Source: a virus
Taxonomy: Duplodnaviria > Heunggongvirae > Uroviricota > Caudoviricetes
Virus record (IMG/VR): IMGVR_UViG_2695420412_000003
Coordinates: 1 to 6,631 of that record
Strand: one strand, 5' to 3'
Length of the DNA: 6,631 bases
This document shows, in pieces, positions 1 to 6,631 of this stretch. The translations under genes and the position numbers were made by a program. The notes under the pieces were generated by a model. It was not told the origin of the DNA. It saw only the letters and a list, made by a program, of their open reading frames with translations, and ran no database searches. Within the stretch, counting starts at the first letter, position 1. Every line of letters starts with the position of its first letter.

Positions 1-438
1 ATGCGACTGCCACGGCCCCGTGATTTCTCTGCCTTCGCGGGTTTTGAATGGTTCGCGGCGGCATTCATCCATCCACTCGGTAACGCAGATCGGATGATTA
101 CGGTCCTTGCGGTAAATCCGGCATGTACATGATTCATTGTCCTGCTCAAAGTCCATGCCATCAAACTGCTGGTTTTCATTGATGATACGGGACCAGCCAT
201 CAACGCCCACCACCGGAACGATGCCGTTCTGCTTGTCAGGGAAGGCGTAAATTTCTTTCGTCCACGGATTAAGGCCGTACTGGTTGGCGACGATCAGTAA
301 TGCGATGAACTGCGCATCGCTGGCATCACCTTTAAATGCCGTCTGGCGAAGAGTGGTGATCAGTTCCTGTGGGTCGACAGAATCCATGCCGACACGTTCA
401 GCCAGCTTCCCAGCCAGCGTTGCGAGTGCTGTACTCAT
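1..438 (-). CDS. bet: Recombination protein Bet (Red-beta single-strand annealing protein), N-terminal ~146 codons; gene continues beyond the window's left edge
   Basis: Minus-strand translation from the ATG at 436-438 reads MSTALATLAGKLAERVGMDSVDPQELITTLRQTAFKGDASDAQF...REGREITGPWQSH, matching my recollection of lambda Bet. It is open to position 1. It lies 5 nt downstream of the gam stop, as in lambda. Not in the ORF track because it is truncated by the window edge. Confidence 0.9.
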   Translation of the reverse strand, partial: MSTALATLAGKLAERVGMDSVDPQELITTLRQTAFKGDASDAQFIALLIVANQYGLNPWTKEIYAFPDKQNGIVPVVGVDGWSRIINENQQFDGMDFEQDNESCTCRIYRKDRNHPICVTEWMDECRREPFKTREGREITGPWQSH

Positions 439-443
439 CCGTT

Positions 444-740
444 TTATACCTCTGAATCAATATCAACCTGGTGGTGAGCAATGGTTTCAACCATGTACCG
501 GATGTGTTCTGCCATGCGTTCCTGAAACTCAACATCGTCATCAAACGCACGGGTAATGGCTTTTTTGCTGGCCCCGTGGCGTTGCAAATGATCGATGCAT
601 AGCGATTCAAACAGGTGCTGGGGCAGGCCTTTTTCCATGTCGTCTGCCAGTTCTGCCTCTTTCTCTTCACGGGCGATCTGCTGGTAGTGACGCGCCCAGC
701 TCTGAGCCTCAAGACGATCCTGAATGTAATAAGCGTTCAT
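444..740 (-). CDS. gam: Gam, host RecBCD inhibitor (98-aa short form)
   Basis: The 98-aa product [60 protein letters not shown]... matches lambda GamS from memory. An AGGAG Shine-Dalgarno lies about 8 nt upstream of the ATG at 738-740. Confidence 0.9.
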
Positions 741-794
741 GGCTGAACTCCTGAAAATGGCTGTGAAAATATCGCCCGCGAAATGCCAGGCTGA

Positions 795-959
795 TTAGGA
801 AAACAGGAAAGGGGGGTAGTGAATGCTTTTGCTTGATCTCAGTTTCTGTATTAATATCCATTTTTTATAAGCGTCGACGGCCTCACGAAACATCTTTTCA
901 TCGCCAATAAAAGTGGCGATAGTGAATTTAGTCTGGATAGCCATAATTGTTTGATCCAT
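795..959 (-). CDS. kil: Kil-like host cell-division inhibitor (54 aa), using the internal ATG of the 795..1085 ORF
   Basis: The internal ATG at 957-959 is preceded by AGGAG and gives [54 protein letters not shown]. It overlaps the 3' end of cIII by 32 nt in a different frame, the same arrangement as lambda kil/cIII. The sequence identity to lambda Kil is recalled only approximately, and the length (54 aa) differs from my memory of lambda Kil (47 aa). Confidence 0.6.
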
Positions 960-1092
960 TTTTCGGGACTCCTGGCTGATTAAGTATGTCGATAAGGCGT
1001 TTCCATCCGTCACGTAATTTACGGGTAATTCGTTCAAGTAAAGATTCGGAAGGGCAGCCAGCAACAGGCCACCCTGCAATGGCATATTGCAT
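928..1092 (-). CDS. cIII: cIII, FtsH (HflB) protease inhibitor that stabilises cII (54 aa)
   Basis: Hand translation of the minus strand from the ATG at 1090-1092 gives [54 protein letters not shown], then TAA at 928-930. This matches lambda cIII as I recall it. It is absent from the ORF track, presumably because it is short. Confidence 0.85.
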   Translation of the reverse strand: MQYAIAGWPVAGCPSESLLERITRKLRDGWKRLIDILNQPGVPKNGSNNYGYPD

Positions 1093-1158
1093 GGTGTGCT
1101 CCTTATTTATTTACACATAACGAAAACGCCTCTAGTGAAGCGTTATTGGTATGCATAT

Positions 1159-1182
1159 AAAAAAGCCCTCACATTGGAGGGC
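1159..1182 (-). terminator. Intrinsic terminator on the leftward transcript, between the 156-aa orphan gene and cIII
   Basis: Plus strand has gccctc (1165-1170), loop acattg, gagggc (1177-1182), preceded by aaaaaa (1159-1164). On the minus strand this is a 6-bp GC-rich stem followed by a run of six U. Confidence 0.5.
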
Positions 1183-1286
1183 AAAGAAGATTTCCAATAA
1201 TCAGAACAAGTCGGCTCCTGTTTGGTTACGAGCGACATTGCTCCGTGTATTCACTCGTTGGAATGAATACACAGTGCTTATTCGTA

Positions 1287-1757
1287 CTAATAAAACACCC
1301 AGTTTTCTGTTTCTTGGTTGTGTCCAAAGTTATATTCAATATCTGGTATTGATGTATCAATATTCTTCATCCCATCAACAAGAGTTGATACAACAGCCAA
1401 ATCTTGTTTGATTCTCATTAAATGGTATTTCTTCCGGTGCAATAAACTCTCAATGGCAAGTTTCTTCGTTGGGAATGCAAAAGATCTTTCTGCATTTTTT
1501 GCTACTTTCTTAATTGCATATCTATTTCTCCTTTGTTTCCATTCCTGTAACCACTGATTTGGTGCTGGTTTAAAATTAACAATCCAATGCGCAGGAACCA
1601 ACCATGCATAATGCTCTGTCTGATGAAAAGCTATATATTGAAGTGCGAATATTTTTATCCCATCTTCTTCAACTGTCGCCTGGAATCTCCAGAAAACAGG
1701 CATTCCATCATGTTCAGTTTCTGATTCAGGAAAAGGTACGCTCCATGATTTTGTCAT
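1287..1757 (-). CDS. Hypothetical protein, 156 aa, no family recognised; accessory ('moron') candidate in the N-cIII interval
   Basis: Complete ORF with a GAGGTGA Shine-Dalgarno about 5 nt upstream of the ATG at 1755-1757. The region is visibly AT-rich relative to the flanking lambda-like genes. An intrinsic terminator lies downstream. The plus-strand ORFs overlapping it look like antisense artefacts. Confidence 0.7.
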   Translation of the reverse strand: MTKSWSVPFPESETEHDGMPVFWRFQATVEEDGIKIFALQYIAFHQTEHYAWLVPAHWIVNFKPAPNQWLQEWKQRRNRYAIKKVAKNAERSFAFPTKKLAIESLLHRKKYHLMRIKQDLAVVSTLVDGMKNIDTSIPDIEYNFGHNQETENWVFY

Positions 1758-1815
1758 ATCTCACCTCAAATAAGTGGTTTGCTGCCTAATTTCATTTTCT
1801 GGCGACCAACACAAG

Positions 1816-2088
1816 TCACCTCGCCGTCAGTTGTTTTGATTTCCGGTAGCCTGCCGCGTAAAGAGCTACGTTCGGAAGACAAGTTGAACCTTCATATTTT
1901 CTGGTCAACGTTGTCAGAGTTATAACTTCTGCTCTCATTGCTGGTTTGCGCTTGCATTGCAAGACCACTCGTGAAGGGGTTGGCCTGTGTAGCTTGTCGG
2001 AGCTGATCGCCTCCTGACTTTGCAGATTTGCGCGACGAGCTCTACGGCGAGAAGCTGCGGTGCCTTTAAATTCTGTTTTTCTGGACAT
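1816..2088 (-). CDS. N: N-family transcription antiterminator (91 aa from the internal ATG of the 1816..2160 ORF)
   Basis: The ATG at 2086-2088 is preceded by GGGAGGA. The N-terminus MSRKTEFKGTAASRRRARRANLQSQEA carries an arginine-rich motif typical of lambdoid N proteins and resembles the phage 21 class rather than lambda. The gene sits directly downstream of a nutL-like boxA/boxB, in the canonical position. Confidence 0.7.
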   Translation of the reverse strand: MSRKTEFKGTAASRRRARRANLQSQEAISSDKLHRPTPSRVVLQCKRKPAMRAEVITLTTLTRKYEGSTCLPNVALYAAGYRKSKQLTAR

Positions 2089-2186
2089 GGATTCCTCCCG
2101 AATAAACTTTGGCGATGCAATCTCGAAGCTCCTCCTGAGACGGTTGCTTCGGCATTGCATCCCACAGCTTATGTGGTTGGGTGATC

Positions 2187-2231
2187 TGGCTTTTCAGCCA
2201 CGTAGTCGAGAGTCGACGTTGTTTAAAGAGC
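2187..2231 (-). promoter_or_regulatory. nutL-like site: boxA, spacer hairpin, boxB (read on the minus strand)
   Basis: Minus strand reads GCTCTTTAAACAACG (boxA-like; plus 2223-2231), then a spacer with a GTCGA/TCGAC hairpin, then TGGC-TGAAAA-GCCA (boxB-like stem-loop; plus 2187-2200). The same architecture recurs at nutR (4866-4911) with a compensatory change in the boxB stem. Confidence 0.55.
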
Positions 2232-2277
2232 CTGCCAGTCTGTTCCATTTGGCTTCCAGCGTCCTGCTGACGGTTAA

Positions 2278-2320
2278 ATAGTACGATATGTGCTTTACAA
2301 GATCAATACAATTTGTTGTA
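2278..2320 (-). promoter_or_regulatory. Candidate pL promoter with overlapping oL operator(s)
   Basis: Minus strand shows TTGATC (plus 2301-2306) as a -35, a 17-nt spacer, then TACTAT (plus 2278-2283) as a -10. This places the transcription start about 45 nt upstream of boxA. An adjacent inverted repeat TACAA-N4-TTGTA (2307-2320) shares the TTGTA/TACA motif found in the cI-cro intergenic region. Assigned by eye only. Confidence 0.3.
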
Positions 2321-2493
2321 AGTTGGCGTGGTTTTTTATAACGCTTTGTATTTAATAGTGTTGTTTTTTAGCGTGGATGTATTGTCTCGGCGATGTAAGG
2401 AGAGATCAGAATTGCGTGGTTTAGTGGGTTGCATCTATTTATTTTTCAATAAATATAATTGGTTATGTGTTTTTAGGTGGGCGAACGTGAGGC

Positions 2494-2519
2494 AAAGAAA
2501 ACCCGGCGCTGAGGCCGGG
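2494..2519 (-). terminator. Intrinsic terminator ending the cI-to-250-aa-gene leftward operon
   Basis: cccggc (2502-2507), loop gctgag, gccggg (2514-2519); on the minus strand the hairpin is followed by UUUUCUUU (plus 2494-2501). It begins 5 nt after the stop of the 250-aa ORF (2525-2527). Confidence 0.6.
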
Positions 2520-2524
2520 TTGTA

Positions 2525-3277
2525 TTATGCTGCAAGTCTCTTAATCCAAGTCTCTCTTTTGGAGAATGGTAGAACTTGGCTTGATTCATGGAAGAGTAAG
2601 GAGAGTTGTTGCATTTGATCACCAATTGCTTCGCTGTCTATAACAACAAATCTGTTGTTATACTCCTCACTTGAAGCTTTAAGATCAATTAGTTTCCCAA
2701 GCAATGAGTAAGCACTATTCCAGCTTCCTCCGTGTTTCACGCTTGATGTAAAAACGTATTTAGGTATGTCGGTTTTTATTGTTACAGGGACGGTAATTTG
2801 ATGTCCACTCAAGCCATATACGTTTTCACGAAGAGAAAGTGCGTCTCTAAGCTCTGTGTGATATAGATAATCAATAACCATACTTTCAAACTTTTCAGCT
2901 TGAACTGGCTGATACCAGTCTAACGACAAAGTTGATGCGAGTATACCAGCTCTAATTATGTTCGATGTAATCGCACCGACATCCTTTTCTGTTGCCCAAG
3001 CAATGATTTCTCCTCGAGCATTGAGTTCTGCGCCTTCTTTAAGCAGTAATTGTCGTATCTCATCAAGTCGTTTTTTGGTAAGCGAGATCCCTCTTGCCTC
3101 CATATTCATTAAGGCATCGCATCTGTCACTAACTAAATACCTACCATTGACTTCACGGATAAAGGCACCGACATGCTCTCCATCATCACAGTAAGTGAAT
3201 GGACTGATAATTCTCAAGGTCTTGCCTATTGGATGGCATTCGAAACCTAGTTGTGAGATCACTGTTGAGCACATCAT
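2525..3277 (-). CDS. Hypothetical protein, 250 aa, no family recognised; distal gene of the two-gene cassette at the rexAB-equivalent position
   Basis: Complete ORF whose ATG (3275-3277) overlaps the upstream gene's TGA (3274-3276) in an ATGA arrangement, indicating translational coupling. AT-rich. No obvious Walker, nuclease or transmembrane motif seen by eye. Followed immediately by an intrinsic terminator. Confidence 0.75.
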   Translation of the reverse strand: MMCSTVISQLGFECHPIGKTLRIISPFTYCDDGEHVGAFIREVNGRYLVSDRCDALMNMEARGISLTKKRLDEIRQLLLKEGAELNARGEIIAWATEKDVGAITSNIIRAGILASTLSLDWYQPVQAEKFESMVIDYLYHTELRDALSLRENVYGLSGHQITVPVTIKTDIPKYVFTSSVKHGGSWNSAYSLLGKLIDLKASSEEYNNRFVVIDSEAIGDQMQQLSLLFHESSQVLPFSKRETWIKRLAA

Positions 3278-3831
3278 ATTCCAAACCCCATTTGCCCCGA
3301 CTCATCTTCAAGCGGTAAAGGTATTCTCCCAGAGTAAGTTATGTTCAGATGTTTACAGAAGTAATTCCAATACCCTACCAGGTCATCTGGGTTTATGTCA
3401 TCTTCGATTGGAAACGCTATTCTATCACTATAGTATCCAGCTTCTTCATAGTATACATGGTAGTGAGCACCGTAAATGATATCTTGGTACTTCGGATGAT
3501 CGACCTTGTAACTATTCGTGTGTTTGTCAAAGTGATAGGTATCTACCGCGAAAACCCTCTTGTTATGATAGAAAGCAATAATATTTATTTTAGGGTAAGA
3601 AATCGGGTCATCAGGTTCTGAATCCTGATCTGGTTTCCATTTCAGTTCAAACTTTAGCCCTTGTATAGGTATACAATCCTCATCCAAGGGGATGATATGA
3701 GCTTGTAGCCACATATCAGAGCGACTTGGTTTCTGTTTCCATTTAACGCCAGAAAAGTTAACTATTTTTTTACAATAAAGTACTTTATCAACTTCTACTT
3801 GGCTTGGCTGATAATCATCTATTTTTGCCAA
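3274..3831 (-). CDS. Hypothetical acidic Tyr/His/Asp-rich protein, up to 185 aa, no family recognised; proximal gene of the rex-position cassette
   Basis: The ORF opens 39 nt downstream of the cI stop. The first codon in the track is TTG (3829-3831) with a GGGCGG-like Shine-Dalgarno about 8 nt upstream. The first in-frame ATG is at codon 40 and has no Shine-Dalgarno, so the start is uncertain. Coding-like composition continues from 3831. Confidence 0.65.
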   Translation of the reverse strand: MAKIDDYQPSQVEVDKVLYCKKIVNFSGVKWKQKPSRSDMWLQAHIIPLDEDCIPIQGLKFELKWKPDQDSEPDDPISYPKINIIAFYHNKRVFAVDTYHFDKHTNSYKVDHPKYQDIIYGAHYHVYYEEAGYYSDRIAFPIEDDINPDDLVGYWNYFCKHLNITYSGRIPLPLEDESGQMGFGI

Positions 3832-3870
3832 TGTTTACCGCCCTGTAAATTGTAGATAAAAGTGGTTTCA

Positions 3871-4566
3871 TCACCCAAACGTCTCTTCAGGCCATTGGCT
3901 GGCGATAACTTTCCCCACAACGGAACAACTCTCATTGCATGGGATCATTGGGTATTGTGGGTTTAGTGGCTGTAGAAACACCTGACCGCTATCCCTGATC
4001 AGTTTCTTGAAGGTAAATTCATCACCACCAAGTCTGGCTATGCAGAAATCGCCGGGCTCAACAGCTTGCTCAGGGTCAACCAGAATTAACATCCCGTCAG
4101 GAAAGCTGGGTTTGGAACCTGTTGGTGCGGTCATTGAGTTACCTTCAACCTCAAGCCAGAATGCAGAGTCACTGGCTTTTTTGGTTGTGCTTACCAATCT
4201 CTCCGCATCGCCTTTGGTAAAGGTTCTGAGTTCTGGAGAGAACATCCCAGCCTGAACATGAGAAAAAACAGGGTACTCATATTGTTTTTTAACTGGGGCC
4301 GATGAGTATTCGCCAACAGGTGAAAATGTCCCGTCGTGGTTGAATGATATGTTATCAATACCAAGGTATTTAAACACCACACCAATATCACTAAGAGATG
4401 GATGACGAGATCCGCGCAACCAGTGTCCAATCCCACCCTGCGTCATACCTAGCTCTTCGGCTAACTTCTCTTGAGTTATGCCGAGCTCTTTCATTCTGGA
4501 TCTAGCCAGTTCATACCATTTCATTTTCATGTCCTTATTATTACGCTTTGTACTGGAATCATCCAT
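3871..4566 (-). CDS. cI: cI-type prophage repressor: heterologous N-terminal HTH domain fused to a lambda-identical LexA-like S24 autocleavage domain
   Basis: From about [28 protein letters not shown]... to ...[12 protein letters not shown] the C-terminal half matches lambda cI as I recall it, including the GNSM serine motif. The N-terminal part ([52 protein letters not shown]...) is a different HTH domain. The ORF track starts at a TTG (4570-4572); I place the start at the ATG at 4564-4566, which has no Shine-Dalgarno and may be leaderless as in lambda pRM. The start is uncertain by a few codons. Confidence 0.9.
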
Positions 4567-4639
4567 GCACAATGTGTATTTTTACTTGTATTCGTAAAGT
4601 ACATATTGTATTTTTATTCGTGTTTACTATGGAGGGCAT
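4567..4639. promoter_or_regulatory. oR/pR/pRM divergent control region between cI and cro
   Basis: A 73-bp AT-rich intergenic region lies between divergent repressor genes. It contains the inverted repeat TACTT-N9-AAGTA (4583-4601) and TACA-N3-TGTA (4600-4610), plus repeated TTGTATT motifs. Candidate pR elements are TTTACT (4581-4586) and TATTGT (4604-4609); GGAGGG (4631-4636) is the cro Shine-Dalgarno. Confidence 0.5.
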
Positions 4640-4855
4640 ATGAGCAACCTACGAAAATATCGAGAGTCACTGAATATCTCTCAAACAACACTTGCTAAGG
4701 CAGTTGGATGCACACAGGGAGCTATCGGACATTGGGAATCTGGTCGTCGCTTCCCAGACCTTAAAACATGCCGTGCTCTTGTTGCATGCCTAAACAAGTT
4801 AGGCGCAAAAGTCAGTCTTGATGACGTGTTCCCGCCGGAACACAAAGCCGCTTAA
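4640..4855 (+). CDS. cro: Cro-like HTH repressor (71 aa), not lambda Cro
   Basis: It is the first rightward gene, divergent from cI. It carries an HTH-XRE motif (ISQTTLAKAVGCTQGAIGHWESGRRFP) closely paralleling the cI HTH ([27 protein letters not shown]), consistent with shared operator specificity. A GGAGGG Shine-Dalgarno precedes the ATG. Confidence 0.85.
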   Translation: MSNLRKYRESLNISQTTLAKAVGCTQGAIGHWESGRRFPDLKTCRALVACLNKLGAKVSLDDVFPPEHKAA

Positions 4856-4865
4856 TAAGCGGATC

Positions 4866-4911
4866 CGCTCTTTGTAACAACGGACATTCGTCCTACGTCG
4901 CTGAAAAGCGA
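4866..4911 (+). promoter_or_regulatory. nutR-like site: boxA, spacer hairpin, boxB
   Basis: CGCTCTTTGTAACAACG (boxA-like, from 4866), then a GGAC-ATTC-GTCC hairpin (4882-4893), then TCGC-TGAAAA-GCGA (boxB-like, 4898-4911). It lies between cro and cII, as in lambda. Confidence 0.55.
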
Positions 4912-4978
4912 GTTCCAAGATATCTGACCAACTAAGGCCATATGCGTTTCCACGCATACCTTTCAACTAACTATTCAC

Positions 4979-5019
4979 TATTGGAAATCTTAAGAAATGG
5001 AAAGAACAAGTTACAGCAA
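4979..5019 (-). promoter_or_regulatory. pRE-like cII-activated leftward promoter overlapping the cII start
   Basis: Minus strand reads TTGC-TGTAAC-TTGT (plus 5006-5019), then 13 nt, then TAAGAT, then TTCC. This mirrors the lambda pRE layout as I recall it (TTGC-N6-TTGC, about 12 nt, AAGTAT) and spans the complement of the cII ATG. Confidence 0.5.
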
Positions 5020-5293
5020 ACTATCACAGCGTGACGTTGATCGCGCAGAAACAGATTTACTTATCAATCTGTCAGCTATTACCCAGCGCGGTCTGGCAAA
5101 GATGATTGGCTGTCATGAATCGAAGATAAGCAGAACGGACTGGAGATTTATTGCTTCGGTCTTGTGTGCTTTCGGAATGGCATCAGACATAAGTCCGATT
5201 AGCAGGGCTTTTAAGTATGCGCTTGATGGACTCACCAATAAAAAACGCCCGGCGGCAACCGAGCGTTCTGAACAAATCCAGATGGAATTCTGA
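4997..5293 (+). CDS. cII: cII transcriptional activator (98 aa), chimeric: heterologous N-terminal region with lambda-identical C-terminus
   Basis: The C-terminal LTNKKRPAATERSEQIQMEF matches lambda cII as I recall it; the N-terminal about 75 residues differ. Position between nutR and O is canonical. Confidence 0.85.
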   Translation: MERTSYSKLSQRDVDRAETDLLINLSAITQRGLAKMIGCHESKISRTDWRFIASVLCAFGMASDISPISRAFKYALDGLTNKKRPAATERSEQIQMEF

Positions 5294-5314
5294 GGTCATT
5301 ACTGGATCAATCCA
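5238..5314 (-). ncRNA. oop: OOP antisense RNA (antisense to the 3' end of cII), with its intrinsic terminator
   Basis: Minus strand of 5238-5314 reads ...GAUUGAUCCAGUAAUGACCUCAGAAUUCCAUCUGGAUUUGUUCAGAACGCUCGGUUGCCGCCGGGCGUUUUUUAUU, matching lambda OOP RNA from memory, including the GC hairpin and U-tract (plus 5241-5262). Ends are approximate. Confidence 0.7.
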
Positions 5315-5325
5315 CAGGAGTCATT

Positions 5326-6225
5326 ATGACAAATACAGCAAAAATACTCAACTTCTGCAGAGGTAACTTTGCCAAACAGGAGCGTAATGTGGCAGATCTC
5401 GATGATGGTTACGCCAGACTATCAAATATGCTGCTTGAGGCTTATTCAGGCGCAGATCTGACCAAGCGACAGTTTAAAGTGCTGCTTGCCATTCTGCGTA
5501 AAACCTATGGGTGGAATAAACCAATGGACAGAATCACCGATTCTCAACTTAGCGAGATTACAAAGTTACCTGTCAAACGGTGCAATGAAGCCAAGTTAGA
5601 ACTCGTCAGAATGAATATTATCAAGCAGCAAGGCGGCATGTTTGGACCAAATAAAAACATCTCAGAATGGTGTATCCCTCAAAACGAGGGAAAATCCCCT
5701 AAAACGAGGGATAAAACATCCCTCAAATTGGGGGATTGCTATCCCTCAAAACAGGGGGACACAAAAGACACTATTACAAAAGAAAAAAGAAAAGATTATT
5801 CGTCAGAGAATTCTGGCGAATCCTCTGACCAGCCAGAAAACGATCTTTCTGTGGTTAAACCGGATGCTGCAATTCAGAGCGGCAGCAAGTGGGGAACAGC
5901 AGAAGACCTGACCGCCGCAGAGTGGATGTTTGACATGGTGAAGACCATCGCGCCATCAGCCAGAAAACCGAATTTTGCTGGGTGGGCTAACGATATCCGC
6001 CTGATGCGTGAACGTGACGGACGTAACCACCGCGATATGTGTGTGCTTTTCCGCTGGGCCTGCCAGGACAACTTCTGGTCCGGTAACGTGCTGAGTCCGG
6101 CCAAACTCCGCGACAAGTGGACTCAGCTCGAAATCAACCGTAACAAGCAACAGGCAGTCGTGACAGCCAGCAAACCAAAACTCGACCTGACAAACACAGA
6201 CTGGATTTACGGGGTGGATCTATGA
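5326..6225 (+). CDS. O: Replication initiator protein O (299 aa)
   Basis: The 299-aa product MTNTAKILNF...WIYGVDL matches lambda O from memory, with at most a few substitutions. It contains the origin iterons and its stop overlaps the P start (ATGA at 6222-6225). Confidence 0.95.
   Translation: MTNTAKILNFCRGNFAKQERNVADLDDGYARLSNMLLEAYSGADLTKRQFKVLLAILRKTYGWNKPMDRITDSQLSEITKLPVKRCNEAKLELVRMNIIKQQGGMFGPNKNISEWCIPQNEGKSPKTRDKTSLKLGDCYPSKQGDTKDTITKEKRKDYSSENSGESSDQPENDLSVVKPDAAIQSGSKWGTAEDLTAAEWMFDMVKTIAPSARKPNFAGWANDIRLMRERDGRNHRDMCVLFRWACQDNFWSGNVLSPAKLRDKWTQLEINRNKQQAVVTASKPKLDLTNTDWIYGVDL
5674..5800. repeat. Lambda-type replication origin inside O: four ~18-19 bp iterons plus an adjacent AT-rich unwinding region
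   Basis: Iterons atccctcaaaacgaggga (5674-5691), atcccctaaaacgagggat (5694-5712), atccctcaaattgggggat (5718-5736) and atccctcaaaacagggggac (5741-5760), each an imperfect inverted repeat. They are followed by the A-rich tract acaaaagacactattacaaaagaaaaaagaaaag (5761-5794). Confidence 0.85.
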
Positions 6226-6631
6226 AAAACATCGCCGCACAGATGGTTAACTTTGACCGTGAGCAGATGCGTCGGATCGCCAACAACATGCCGGAACAGT
6301 ACGACGAAAAGCCGCAGGTACAGCAGGTAGCGCAGATCATCAACGGTGTGTTCAGCCAGTTACTGGCAACTTTCCCGGCGAGCCTGGCTAACCGTGACCA
6401 GAACGAACTGAACGAAATCCGCCGCCAGTGGGTTCTGGCTTTCCGGGAAAACGGGATCACCACAATGGAACAGGTTAACGCAGGAATGCGCGTAGCCCGT
6501 CGGCAGAATCGACCATTTCTGCCATCACCCGGGCAGTTTGTTGCATGGTGCCGGGAAGAAGCATCCGTTATCGCCGGACTGCCAAACGTCAGCGAGCTGG
6601 TTGATATGGTTTACGAGTATTGCCGGAAGCG
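6222..6631 (+). CDS. P: Replication protein P (DnaB helicase loader), N-terminal ~136 codons; continues beyond the window's right edge
   Basis: The ATG at 6222-6224 overlaps the O stop. Translation MKNIAAQMVNFDREQMRRIANNMPEQYDEKPQVQQVAQIINGVFSQLLATFPASLANRDQNELNEIRRQW... matches lambda P from memory and is open to the window end. Confidence 0.95.
   Translation, partial: MKNIAAQMVNFDREQMRRIANNMPEQYDEKPQVQQVAQIINGVFSQLLATFPASLANRDQNELNEIRRQWVLAFRENGITTMEQVNAGMRVARRQNRPFLPSPGQFVAWCREEASVIAGLPNVSELVDMVYEYCRK

Follow-up and report, generated by a model that had tools for sequence, protein, structure and literature searches.

An early-left cassette gene of the HK97 gp45 type and an adjoining putative PreS/LPR1 small RNA element in a lambdoid phage

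In this study, a 6,631-nucleotide stretch of phage DNA (IMG/VR record IMGVR_UViG_2695420412_000003, positions 1 to 6,631; Caudoviricetes), referred to here as the window, was analysed for a 156-residue open reading frame (ORF) at positions 1287-1757. The window covers the immunity and early-left region of a lambdoid phage, which is transcribed leftward, and the ORF lies on the minus strand between the antiterminator gene N and cIII. The first-pass annotation, made from the letters alone, had described it as an AT-rich orphan gene with its own terminator that replaces the ral/sieB/ea10 interval of lambda. The results given below indicate that the ORF is a real coding gene and an already catalogued lambdoid early-left gene, not an orphan, and that the terminator behind it is tL2a, which belongs to a conserved small RNA (sRNA) gene. 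The best overall explanation, to which we assign a probability of roughly 0.55, is an early-left accessory gene of the HK97 gp45 type, carried in an AT-rich cassette and proposed to encode a host-directed early factor. The identity of the gene, its coding status, the structure of the cassette and the reassignment of the terminator, taken together, are close to certain.

Between the stop codon of N (1816) and the start of cIII (1092), the ORF at 1287-1757 is the only sizeable conserved one. It begins with ATG, and a Shine-Dalgarno sequence, GAGGTGA (1761-1767, minus strand), was read 3 bases upstream, in agreement with the strong ribosome-binding site described at first. The AT-rich composition was likewise confirmed, with a guanine-plus-cytosine (GC) content of 36.1% in the ORF versus 44.9% in the window, 50% in N and 50% in gam. 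The statement that the protein belongs to no family had to be abandoned. Residues 1-156 matched positions 1-156 of the 156-position phrog_1636 profile with an E value of 3.3e-111, and the protein shared 98.1% amino acid identity with HK97 gp45 (NP_037731), which has the same length of 156 residues, and 98.7% with both 933W L0079 (NP_049479) and phi24B vb_24B_11c. In the annotated records of these three phages, the gene order around the ORF is the same, 3′ of N and 5′ of the tL2a block. The gene was found by tblastn in 88 phage records, mostly Stx1a and Stx2a converting phages, and its DNA is present in about 1 in 9 complete Escherichia coli genomes (598 of 5426). Full-length homologues (156-163 residues) with identities down to 54% were found in Pectobacterium, Brenneria, Cronobacter and Rosenbergiella. 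Where the records label the match, it is called "hypothetical protein" or plain Gp45, without a function throughout.

All 80 copies of the ORF found in IMG/VR were intact, and their 29 DNA alleles encode 7 proteins. The segregating sites comprised 21 synonymous and 5 non-synonymous ones, giving a ratio of non-synonymous to synonymous polymorphism (pN/pS) of 0.06. Frameshifts in close relatives, named in the first-pass annotation as a finding that would speak against translation, were not seen in these copies.

The intrinsic terminator reported before cIII was recovered at 1159-1182 (minus strand) by a terminator scan and by homology to lambda. Its hairpin, GCCCTC-AATGTG-GAGGGC, has a stem of 6 bp, 5 of them GC pairs, and is followed directly by T6. 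This terminator, tL2a, is not the gene's own, because it is part of a conserved PreS block that is also present in phages without the gene. Window positions 1154-1277 were 96% identical, over 124-126 nucleotides (nt), to lambda positions 33920-34045, the spacer between ral and ea10. Within this region, a 119-nt block (1277-1159), which begins 9 nt past the stop codon of the ORF and ends with the T-run, was nearly invariant in the window, lambda, ev017, HK97 and 933W, regardless of the gene upstream. The first element of this lambda-type block is a perfect 12-bp hairpin, GTGTATTCATTC-CAAC-GAGTGAATACAC (1245-1272, minus strand; fold z-score -4.6), which is invariant in lambda, ev017, HK97 and 933W and lies directly 5′ of the inferred 5′ end of PreS.

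The lambda ral-ea10 spacer encodes an Hfq-dependent sRNA, LPR1, since renamed PreS, of approximately 88 nt, which is processed to approximately 68 nt (bioRxiv 10.1101/2024.10.31.621285), and the 3′ end of this RNA is the early-left terminator tL2a (Melamed laboratory preprint, 2024; bioRxiv 10.1101/2024.10.31.621285). PreS is made in the lytic cycle only, raises the translation of the host dnaN message, supports phage DNA replication, and is conserved across thousands of genomes (bioRxiv 10.1101/2024.10.31.621285). By alignment and homology to lambda, an 86-nt stretch of the window (1159-1244, minus strand) was identified as a putative PreS/LPR1 homologue, and it would form the 3′ untranslated region (3′UTR) of the gp45-type mRNA. 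In the PreS part of approximately 88 nt, two substitutions and one 2-nt gap were found relative to lambda. Perfect complementarity to the leader of MG1655 dnaN, approximately 15-45 nt upstream of the AUG, was found for the stretches UGUUCUGAUUA and AAAUCUUCUUUG, neither of which differs between lambda and the window.

The terminator tL2a, which belongs to this conserved sRNA gene, does make transcription into cIII dependent on N. Reading through the terminator into cIII, kil and gam with the help of N is the established situation at lambda tL2, and the first-pass claim that expression of these genes needs N-mediated read-through agrees with it. A second terminator-like hairpin, AACGCTTCACTAGAGGCGTT followed by a T-rich tail, was detected by the scan at 1119-1144 (minus strand), and two tandem terminators precede cIII in the window. 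This second hairpin lies at a junction of the HK97 type: the region 1119-1158 is common to the window and HK97 and is not found in lambda, 933W and ev017, all three of which have ea10 at that place.

Comparison with ev017, HK97 and 933W defined a minimal mosaic cassette at 1278-1815 (minus strand), consisting of the spacer between N and the ORF, the Shine-Dalgarno sequence, the ORF and 9 nt past its stop codon, with a GC content of 36.4%. Phage ev017 and its relatives were 97-99% identical to the window at 1-1277 and 1816-6631, and they hold ral plus sieB/esc in the slot 1278-1815 and ea10 after the T-run. HK97 and 933W had sequence in common with the window only over 1116/1154-1881, which places the right-hand junction within the final 22 codons of N. 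The absence of ral, sieB and ea10 represents two events, a cargo swap at approximately 1278-1815 and a separate loss of ea10. Accordingly, the proposal that the gene replaces ral, sieB and ea10 stands for the first part only: the cassette is exchanged with ral plus sieB/esc, and ea10 was lost at a separate junction just after the T-run; 933W carries both the gp45-type gene and ea10.

In the 80 IMG/VR viral contigs, the cassette was paired with N alleles of the HK97, lambda and window types, with or without ea10. The tL2 block was detected 3′ of the ORF at 73 of the 80 loci, and none of the loci showed a different arrangement. A copy with 62% identity is the first gene of an early operon in two phages of an unrelated type, Salmonella phage NX263 and E. 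coli phage Bas81. The corresponding slot of P22 holds ral, orf78, orf87 and gene 17. Comparison of the N-to-cIII interval across related phages, a check proposed at the outset, thus revealed a variable cargo slot in ev017, HK97, 933W, the E. coli Sakai prophage Sp5 and P22. These observations support the view that the ORF is an accessory cassette of the early-left operon, dispensable and often exchanged. Its protein showed no similarity to two other products of this slot, Ea10 (annotated as Ssb) and P22 gp17, the hhalign probabilities being 0.15% and 2%, respectively.

Several further observations were made at this slot and its counterparts. The mosaic junction inside N (1816-1881) separates the last 22 codons, which together with the cassette are common to HK97 and 933W, from the remaining part of N, which is 99% identical to that of ev017. 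In prophage Sp5, a different gene, for a function-unknown protein of 83 residues (phrog_2471, ECs_1180; L021, 8721-8972), occupies the slot between N and ea10. In the relatives of NX263 (loci L102-L141), exactly the gp45-like gene is missing or replaced. The NX263-type slot, which lies before a ParB-like gene, is hypervariable, ranging from 10 to 1190 nt, and the alternative small genes in it all belong to function-unknown PHROGs.

The predicted product has a molecular mass of 18.6 kDa and an isoelectric point (pI) of 8.8; for the family, the median pI is 9.0. Residues 61-131 together carry a net charge of +12, and the ends of the protein are acidic. No transmembrane segment was found in it, the maximum of the Kyte-Doolittle 19-residue window being 0.71, and the protein is predicted to be soluble and to have a single domain. 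No enzyme-like signature was seen in the protein.

Searches with the single protein against Pfam, NCBIfam, PADLOC and PDB sequences returned nothing significant, and the PHROG matches were all function-unknown. None of the anti-phage defence families of PADLOC-DB 2.0 matched at E values up to 1. When 55 family members were scanned, only the function-unknown PHROGs 1636, 13631, 25384 and 28215 were hit, with three isolated weak matches only in Pfam, and the family profile gave isolated weak matches at most against PDB sequences. When a profile was run against 1.84 billion representative proteins, 91 matches were obtained at E ≤1e-3, mostly of 105-165 residues and aligned over residues 20-140; two large proteins among them (P0059 and P0069) represent repeats or junk and not domain fusions. 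At the protein level, homologues reach down to 20% identity. The family core consists of a beta-hairpin ending in [HR]-E-T, an invariant K87, a segment R-[FY]-A-[FY]-x-T-K-E-x-A and a helix with R-K-x-x-Q-x-x-H-L. A near-invariant acidic residue of the family, E46, is replaced by Q in the enterobacterial clade to which the ORF protein belongs, and C49 is replaced by H. None of the sources gave a name for any member of the wider family, and no cellular relatives with a named function were found.

Structure prediction had also been proposed at the outset. AlphaFold, when given an alignment of 55 sequences, produced a model with a predicted local distance difference test score (pLDDT) of 93.7 and a predicted template modelling score (pTM) of 0.80; with 20 close homologues the model was poor (pLDDT 55.5). 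In the confident model, the long strands 19-30, 33-46 and 50-55 are antiparallel; after them, the chain forms two short helices, a brief strand at 83-86 and, over residues 98-130, a helix of 33 residues. The predicted fold is a long-stranded beta-meander of three strands packed on this 33-residue helix, and the conserved basic residues of the family are placed within and directly before this helix. No solved structure with a matching fold was found for the model, nor was any known DNA-binding fold. By Foldseek, the same predicted fold was detected, with E values from 3e-7 to 9e-4, in phages of Erwinia, Achromobacter, Delftia, Rhizobium, Tenacibaculum and Cellulophaga.

A relaxed scan for promoter-like hexamer pairs (8 of 12 matches) gave none in the 340 nt that precede the ORF. 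The same scan recovered a single candidate, TTGATC-17-TACTAT (2306-2278, minus strand), which is a candidate for pL and is correctly placed before nutL. A standard scan detected no sigma-70-like site in 900-2600, and it also missed pL. The nutL site (approximately 2231-2187, minus strand) was read from the sequence as boxA, CTCTTTAACAA (approximately 2230-2220), and a boxB-like element, TGGCTGAAAAGCCA (2200-2187). Because no promoter was detectable upstream, the gene is probably transcribed from pL only, after infection or induction, and hence in the lytic cycle. Together with its cassette behaviour, this agrees with the original assignment of the ORF to the accessory genes of the early-left operon. 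Classification of the gene as a moron was considered and rejected, since no promoter of its own was found and the terminator belongs to the PreS block found in phages without the gene.

Following infection or induction, the pL transcript would carry the gp45-type gene, and its message would stop at tL2a, with PreS as the 3′UTR, unless N-modified RNA polymerase carried it on into cIII, kil and gam. The protein would then bind nucleic acid, or a host protein that handles nucleic acid, through a conserved basic face formed by K87, R91, R108, K109, H112 and R115. As for its role, the protein is best read as an early factor that is dispensable and directed at the host, in counter-defence or in host takeover; we infer this role from the nature of the gene as dispensable and exchanged early cargo, its presence in phages of many hosts, the lack of an enzyme-like signature and the conserved basic surface, and rate it at somewhat less than an even chance. 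The early accessory function suggested at first is thus plausible in the generic sense of counter-defence or takeover, and its more specific forms, a Ral-like or DNA-mimic anti-restriction function and a SieB-like exclusion function, are disfavoured for the reasons given below.

Several points weigh against a host-directed role. No homology was found that would connect the family with a defence system or with a target in the host. The replacement of E46 by Q argues for binding over catalysis and leaves the bound partner unspecified. The promoter inference was made by simple hexamer matching. Literature searches for L0079, HK97 gp45, phrog_1636, vb_24B_11c and the protein accessions found no publications, and the gene had no match in the searched supplementary files of the accessory-gene screen of the Silas laboratory. 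Moreover, the basic face would fit a part in the DNA or RNA metabolism of the phage itself equally well, and distant relatives are placed among replication genes.

The last two points lead to the main competing explanation, in which the protein is an early DNA- or RNA-binding accessory of the phage's own replication, recombination or transcription and is not aimed at host immunity. It is consistent with the basic centre of the protein and with the conserved K, R and H residues in and right before the long helix. The distant relatives lie amid replication-module genes encoding DnaD-like, DUF6291 and ParB-like proteins and a half-size beta-clamp homologue, and in 933W the gene adjoins ea10/ssb. 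From our own reading of translated ORFs, we also take genes near the distant relatives to encode SSB and an exonuclease. However, the gene is distributed sporadically and is exchangeable at its site with ral/sieB or other small genes; it is missing from close relatives of NX263, a gp45-like gene was present at 0 of 79 clamp-like loci, and no known DNA-binding fold was found in the model. We consider this explanation rather unlikely.

Two candidate links with neighbouring genes were dropped. The half-size beta-clamp homologue was found near gp45-like genes in three lineages, which echoes the relation between PreS and dnaN; the reverse search, in which the positive control worked, gave the 0 of 79 mentioned above. 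The ParB-like neighbour, as a lead to function, was seen in two lineages only, which is too few. Apart from this, the half-size clamp homologues, of approximately 180 residues (L016, 4865-5401; L017, 4734-5270; L009, 3062-3613; L013, 3125-3688), matched residues 136-303 of E. coli DnaN with an E value of 1e-17. Both phrog_3007 and the Bas81 record label this protein "RusA-like Holliday junction resolvase", a name that appears to be mis-annotated.

A second alternative is that the protein stands in for Ral as an anti-restriction factor, either by modulating type I restriction as Ral does or by DNA mimicry in the manner of Ocr and ArdA. Its slot is that of ral in lambda, ev017 and P22, and early expression would suit such a function. 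The comparison with Ral itself is unfavourable, as the hhalign probability was 0.1% and the lengths are 156 versus 66 residues. DNA mimics such as Ocr and ArdA are strongly acidic, and the protein, with its pI of 8.8 and a centre of +12, is basic and unlike them. The family is also found in many phages without a hint of one type of restriction pressure. An anti-restriction function is accordingly regarded as improbable.

Exclusion or defence expressed from the prophage, by which a sieB-like gene would shield the lysogen from other phages, appears more improbable still. In its favour, the slot holds sieB in both lambda and P22, and prophage early-left regions often bear defence cargo, such as the PDC-M24-like pair beside cI in the window. 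On the other hand, sieB has its own promoter on the other strand, whereas the gp45-type gene runs with the pL operon and shows no promoter-like site; the protein has neither a membrane segment nor a PADLOC match, and relatives with the same predicted fold are spread over phages of unrelated hosts. Several of these phages are probably virulent, and a virulent phage would have no lysogen to protect. Finally, the idea that the ORF is not translated, the interval being a spacer or the precursor of the downstream sRNA, has in its favour that AT-rich DNA yields long ORFs by chance and that, of the elements in this region, the RNA downstream is understood best, and it can practically be discarded in view of the pN/pS of 0.06, the 80 of 80 intact copies, the protein homologues down to 20% identity, the confident AlphaFold model and the strong Shine-Dalgarno sequence.

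A broader proposal can be made tentatively, and we regard it as rather doubtful: the gp45-type proteins and their distant relatives might together form a class, so far unrecognised, of early effectors for counter-defence or host takeover that share an unsolved fold, travel as swappable cargo of early-operon hot spots and, in lambdoid phages, have PreS as the 3′UTR of their message.

The gp45-type gene lies in the early-left operon of Shiga-toxin phages, including 933W, phi24B and many Stx1a and Stx2a phages. With a confident predicted fold that lacks a solved counterpart and with no assigned function, it is a reasonable target for knock-out or for counter-defence screens. Of more practical use is a correction, namely that the "orphan gene terminator" is an element made up of the PreS sRNA and tL2a, and that in the phage lineage of the window the gene upstream, of which PreS would be the 3′UTR, is not the one found in lambda. 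The known lambdoid early-left organisation is not overturned. The gene is an already catalogued hypothetical one and the terminator a known conserved element.

The remaining features of the window fit this organisation. On the minus strand, the order is cI (3871-4572), a pair of ORFs at the position of rexAB, the pL candidate, nutL, N, the ORF, 194 nt of non-coding DNA, cIII, kil and gam. The antiterminator gene N (1816-2088; Pfam N_peptide, E 2e-32) likely starts with the ATG at 2088, which is preceded by GGGAGGA; at its longest, the reading frame extends to 2160. The cIII gene (928-1092, minus strand), recognised by ORF translation, is among the first genes past the terminators, and a cIII RNA thermoregulator (1047-1105, minus strand; Rfam RF01804, 88.5 bits, E 3e-21) overlaps its start.

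Between cI and pL, two overlapping minus-strand ORFs (3274-3831 and 2525-3277) occupy the position of rexA and rexB. The protein of 250 residues contains DUF1828 and matched the PADLOC candidate PDC-M24B (E 6e-10), and that of 185 residues gave a weak match to DUF6978 and to PDC-M24A (E 5e-4). From these matches, the pair looks like a candidate defence pair expressed from the prophage. A terminator-like hairpin follows it at 2521-2500. The plus-strand GC skew reached +0.51 at 2300-2500, the leftward-transcript side of the cI-distal, oL/pL region being C-rich and G-poor.

Compared with known systems, the gene of the window is the same as HK97 gp45, 933W L0079 and phi24B vb_24B_11c except for the N allele upstream and the immunity region. 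The wider family (phrog_13631, phrog_25384 and phrog_28215, with BFVD models such as A0A0A0YXB3 of Erwinia phage phiEa2809) has the core motifs and the predicted fold in common with the ORF protein; its members come from phages and from genomes bearing prophages, the identity is only 16-28%, and the enterobacterial clade differs from them by an extra N-terminal extension of 18 residues. In its situation the gene resembles lambda Ral, SieB/Esc and Ea10 and P22 gene 17, all of which are encoded by small, non-essential genes in the same slot of the pL operon and undergo mosaic exchange. The RNA element behind it has the same GC-rich hairpin, U-tail and dnaN-complementary stretches as lambda PreS/LPR1-tL2a. 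It differs from the lambda element by two substitutions, T to C in the body and G to A in the loop of the terminator, and by a 2-nt deletion (GA) that brings the T-run directly onto the terminator stem. The neighbours of the block are also different: in lambda, it lies between ral upstream and ea10 downstream, whereas in the window it lies between the gp45-type gene upstream and cIII downstream.

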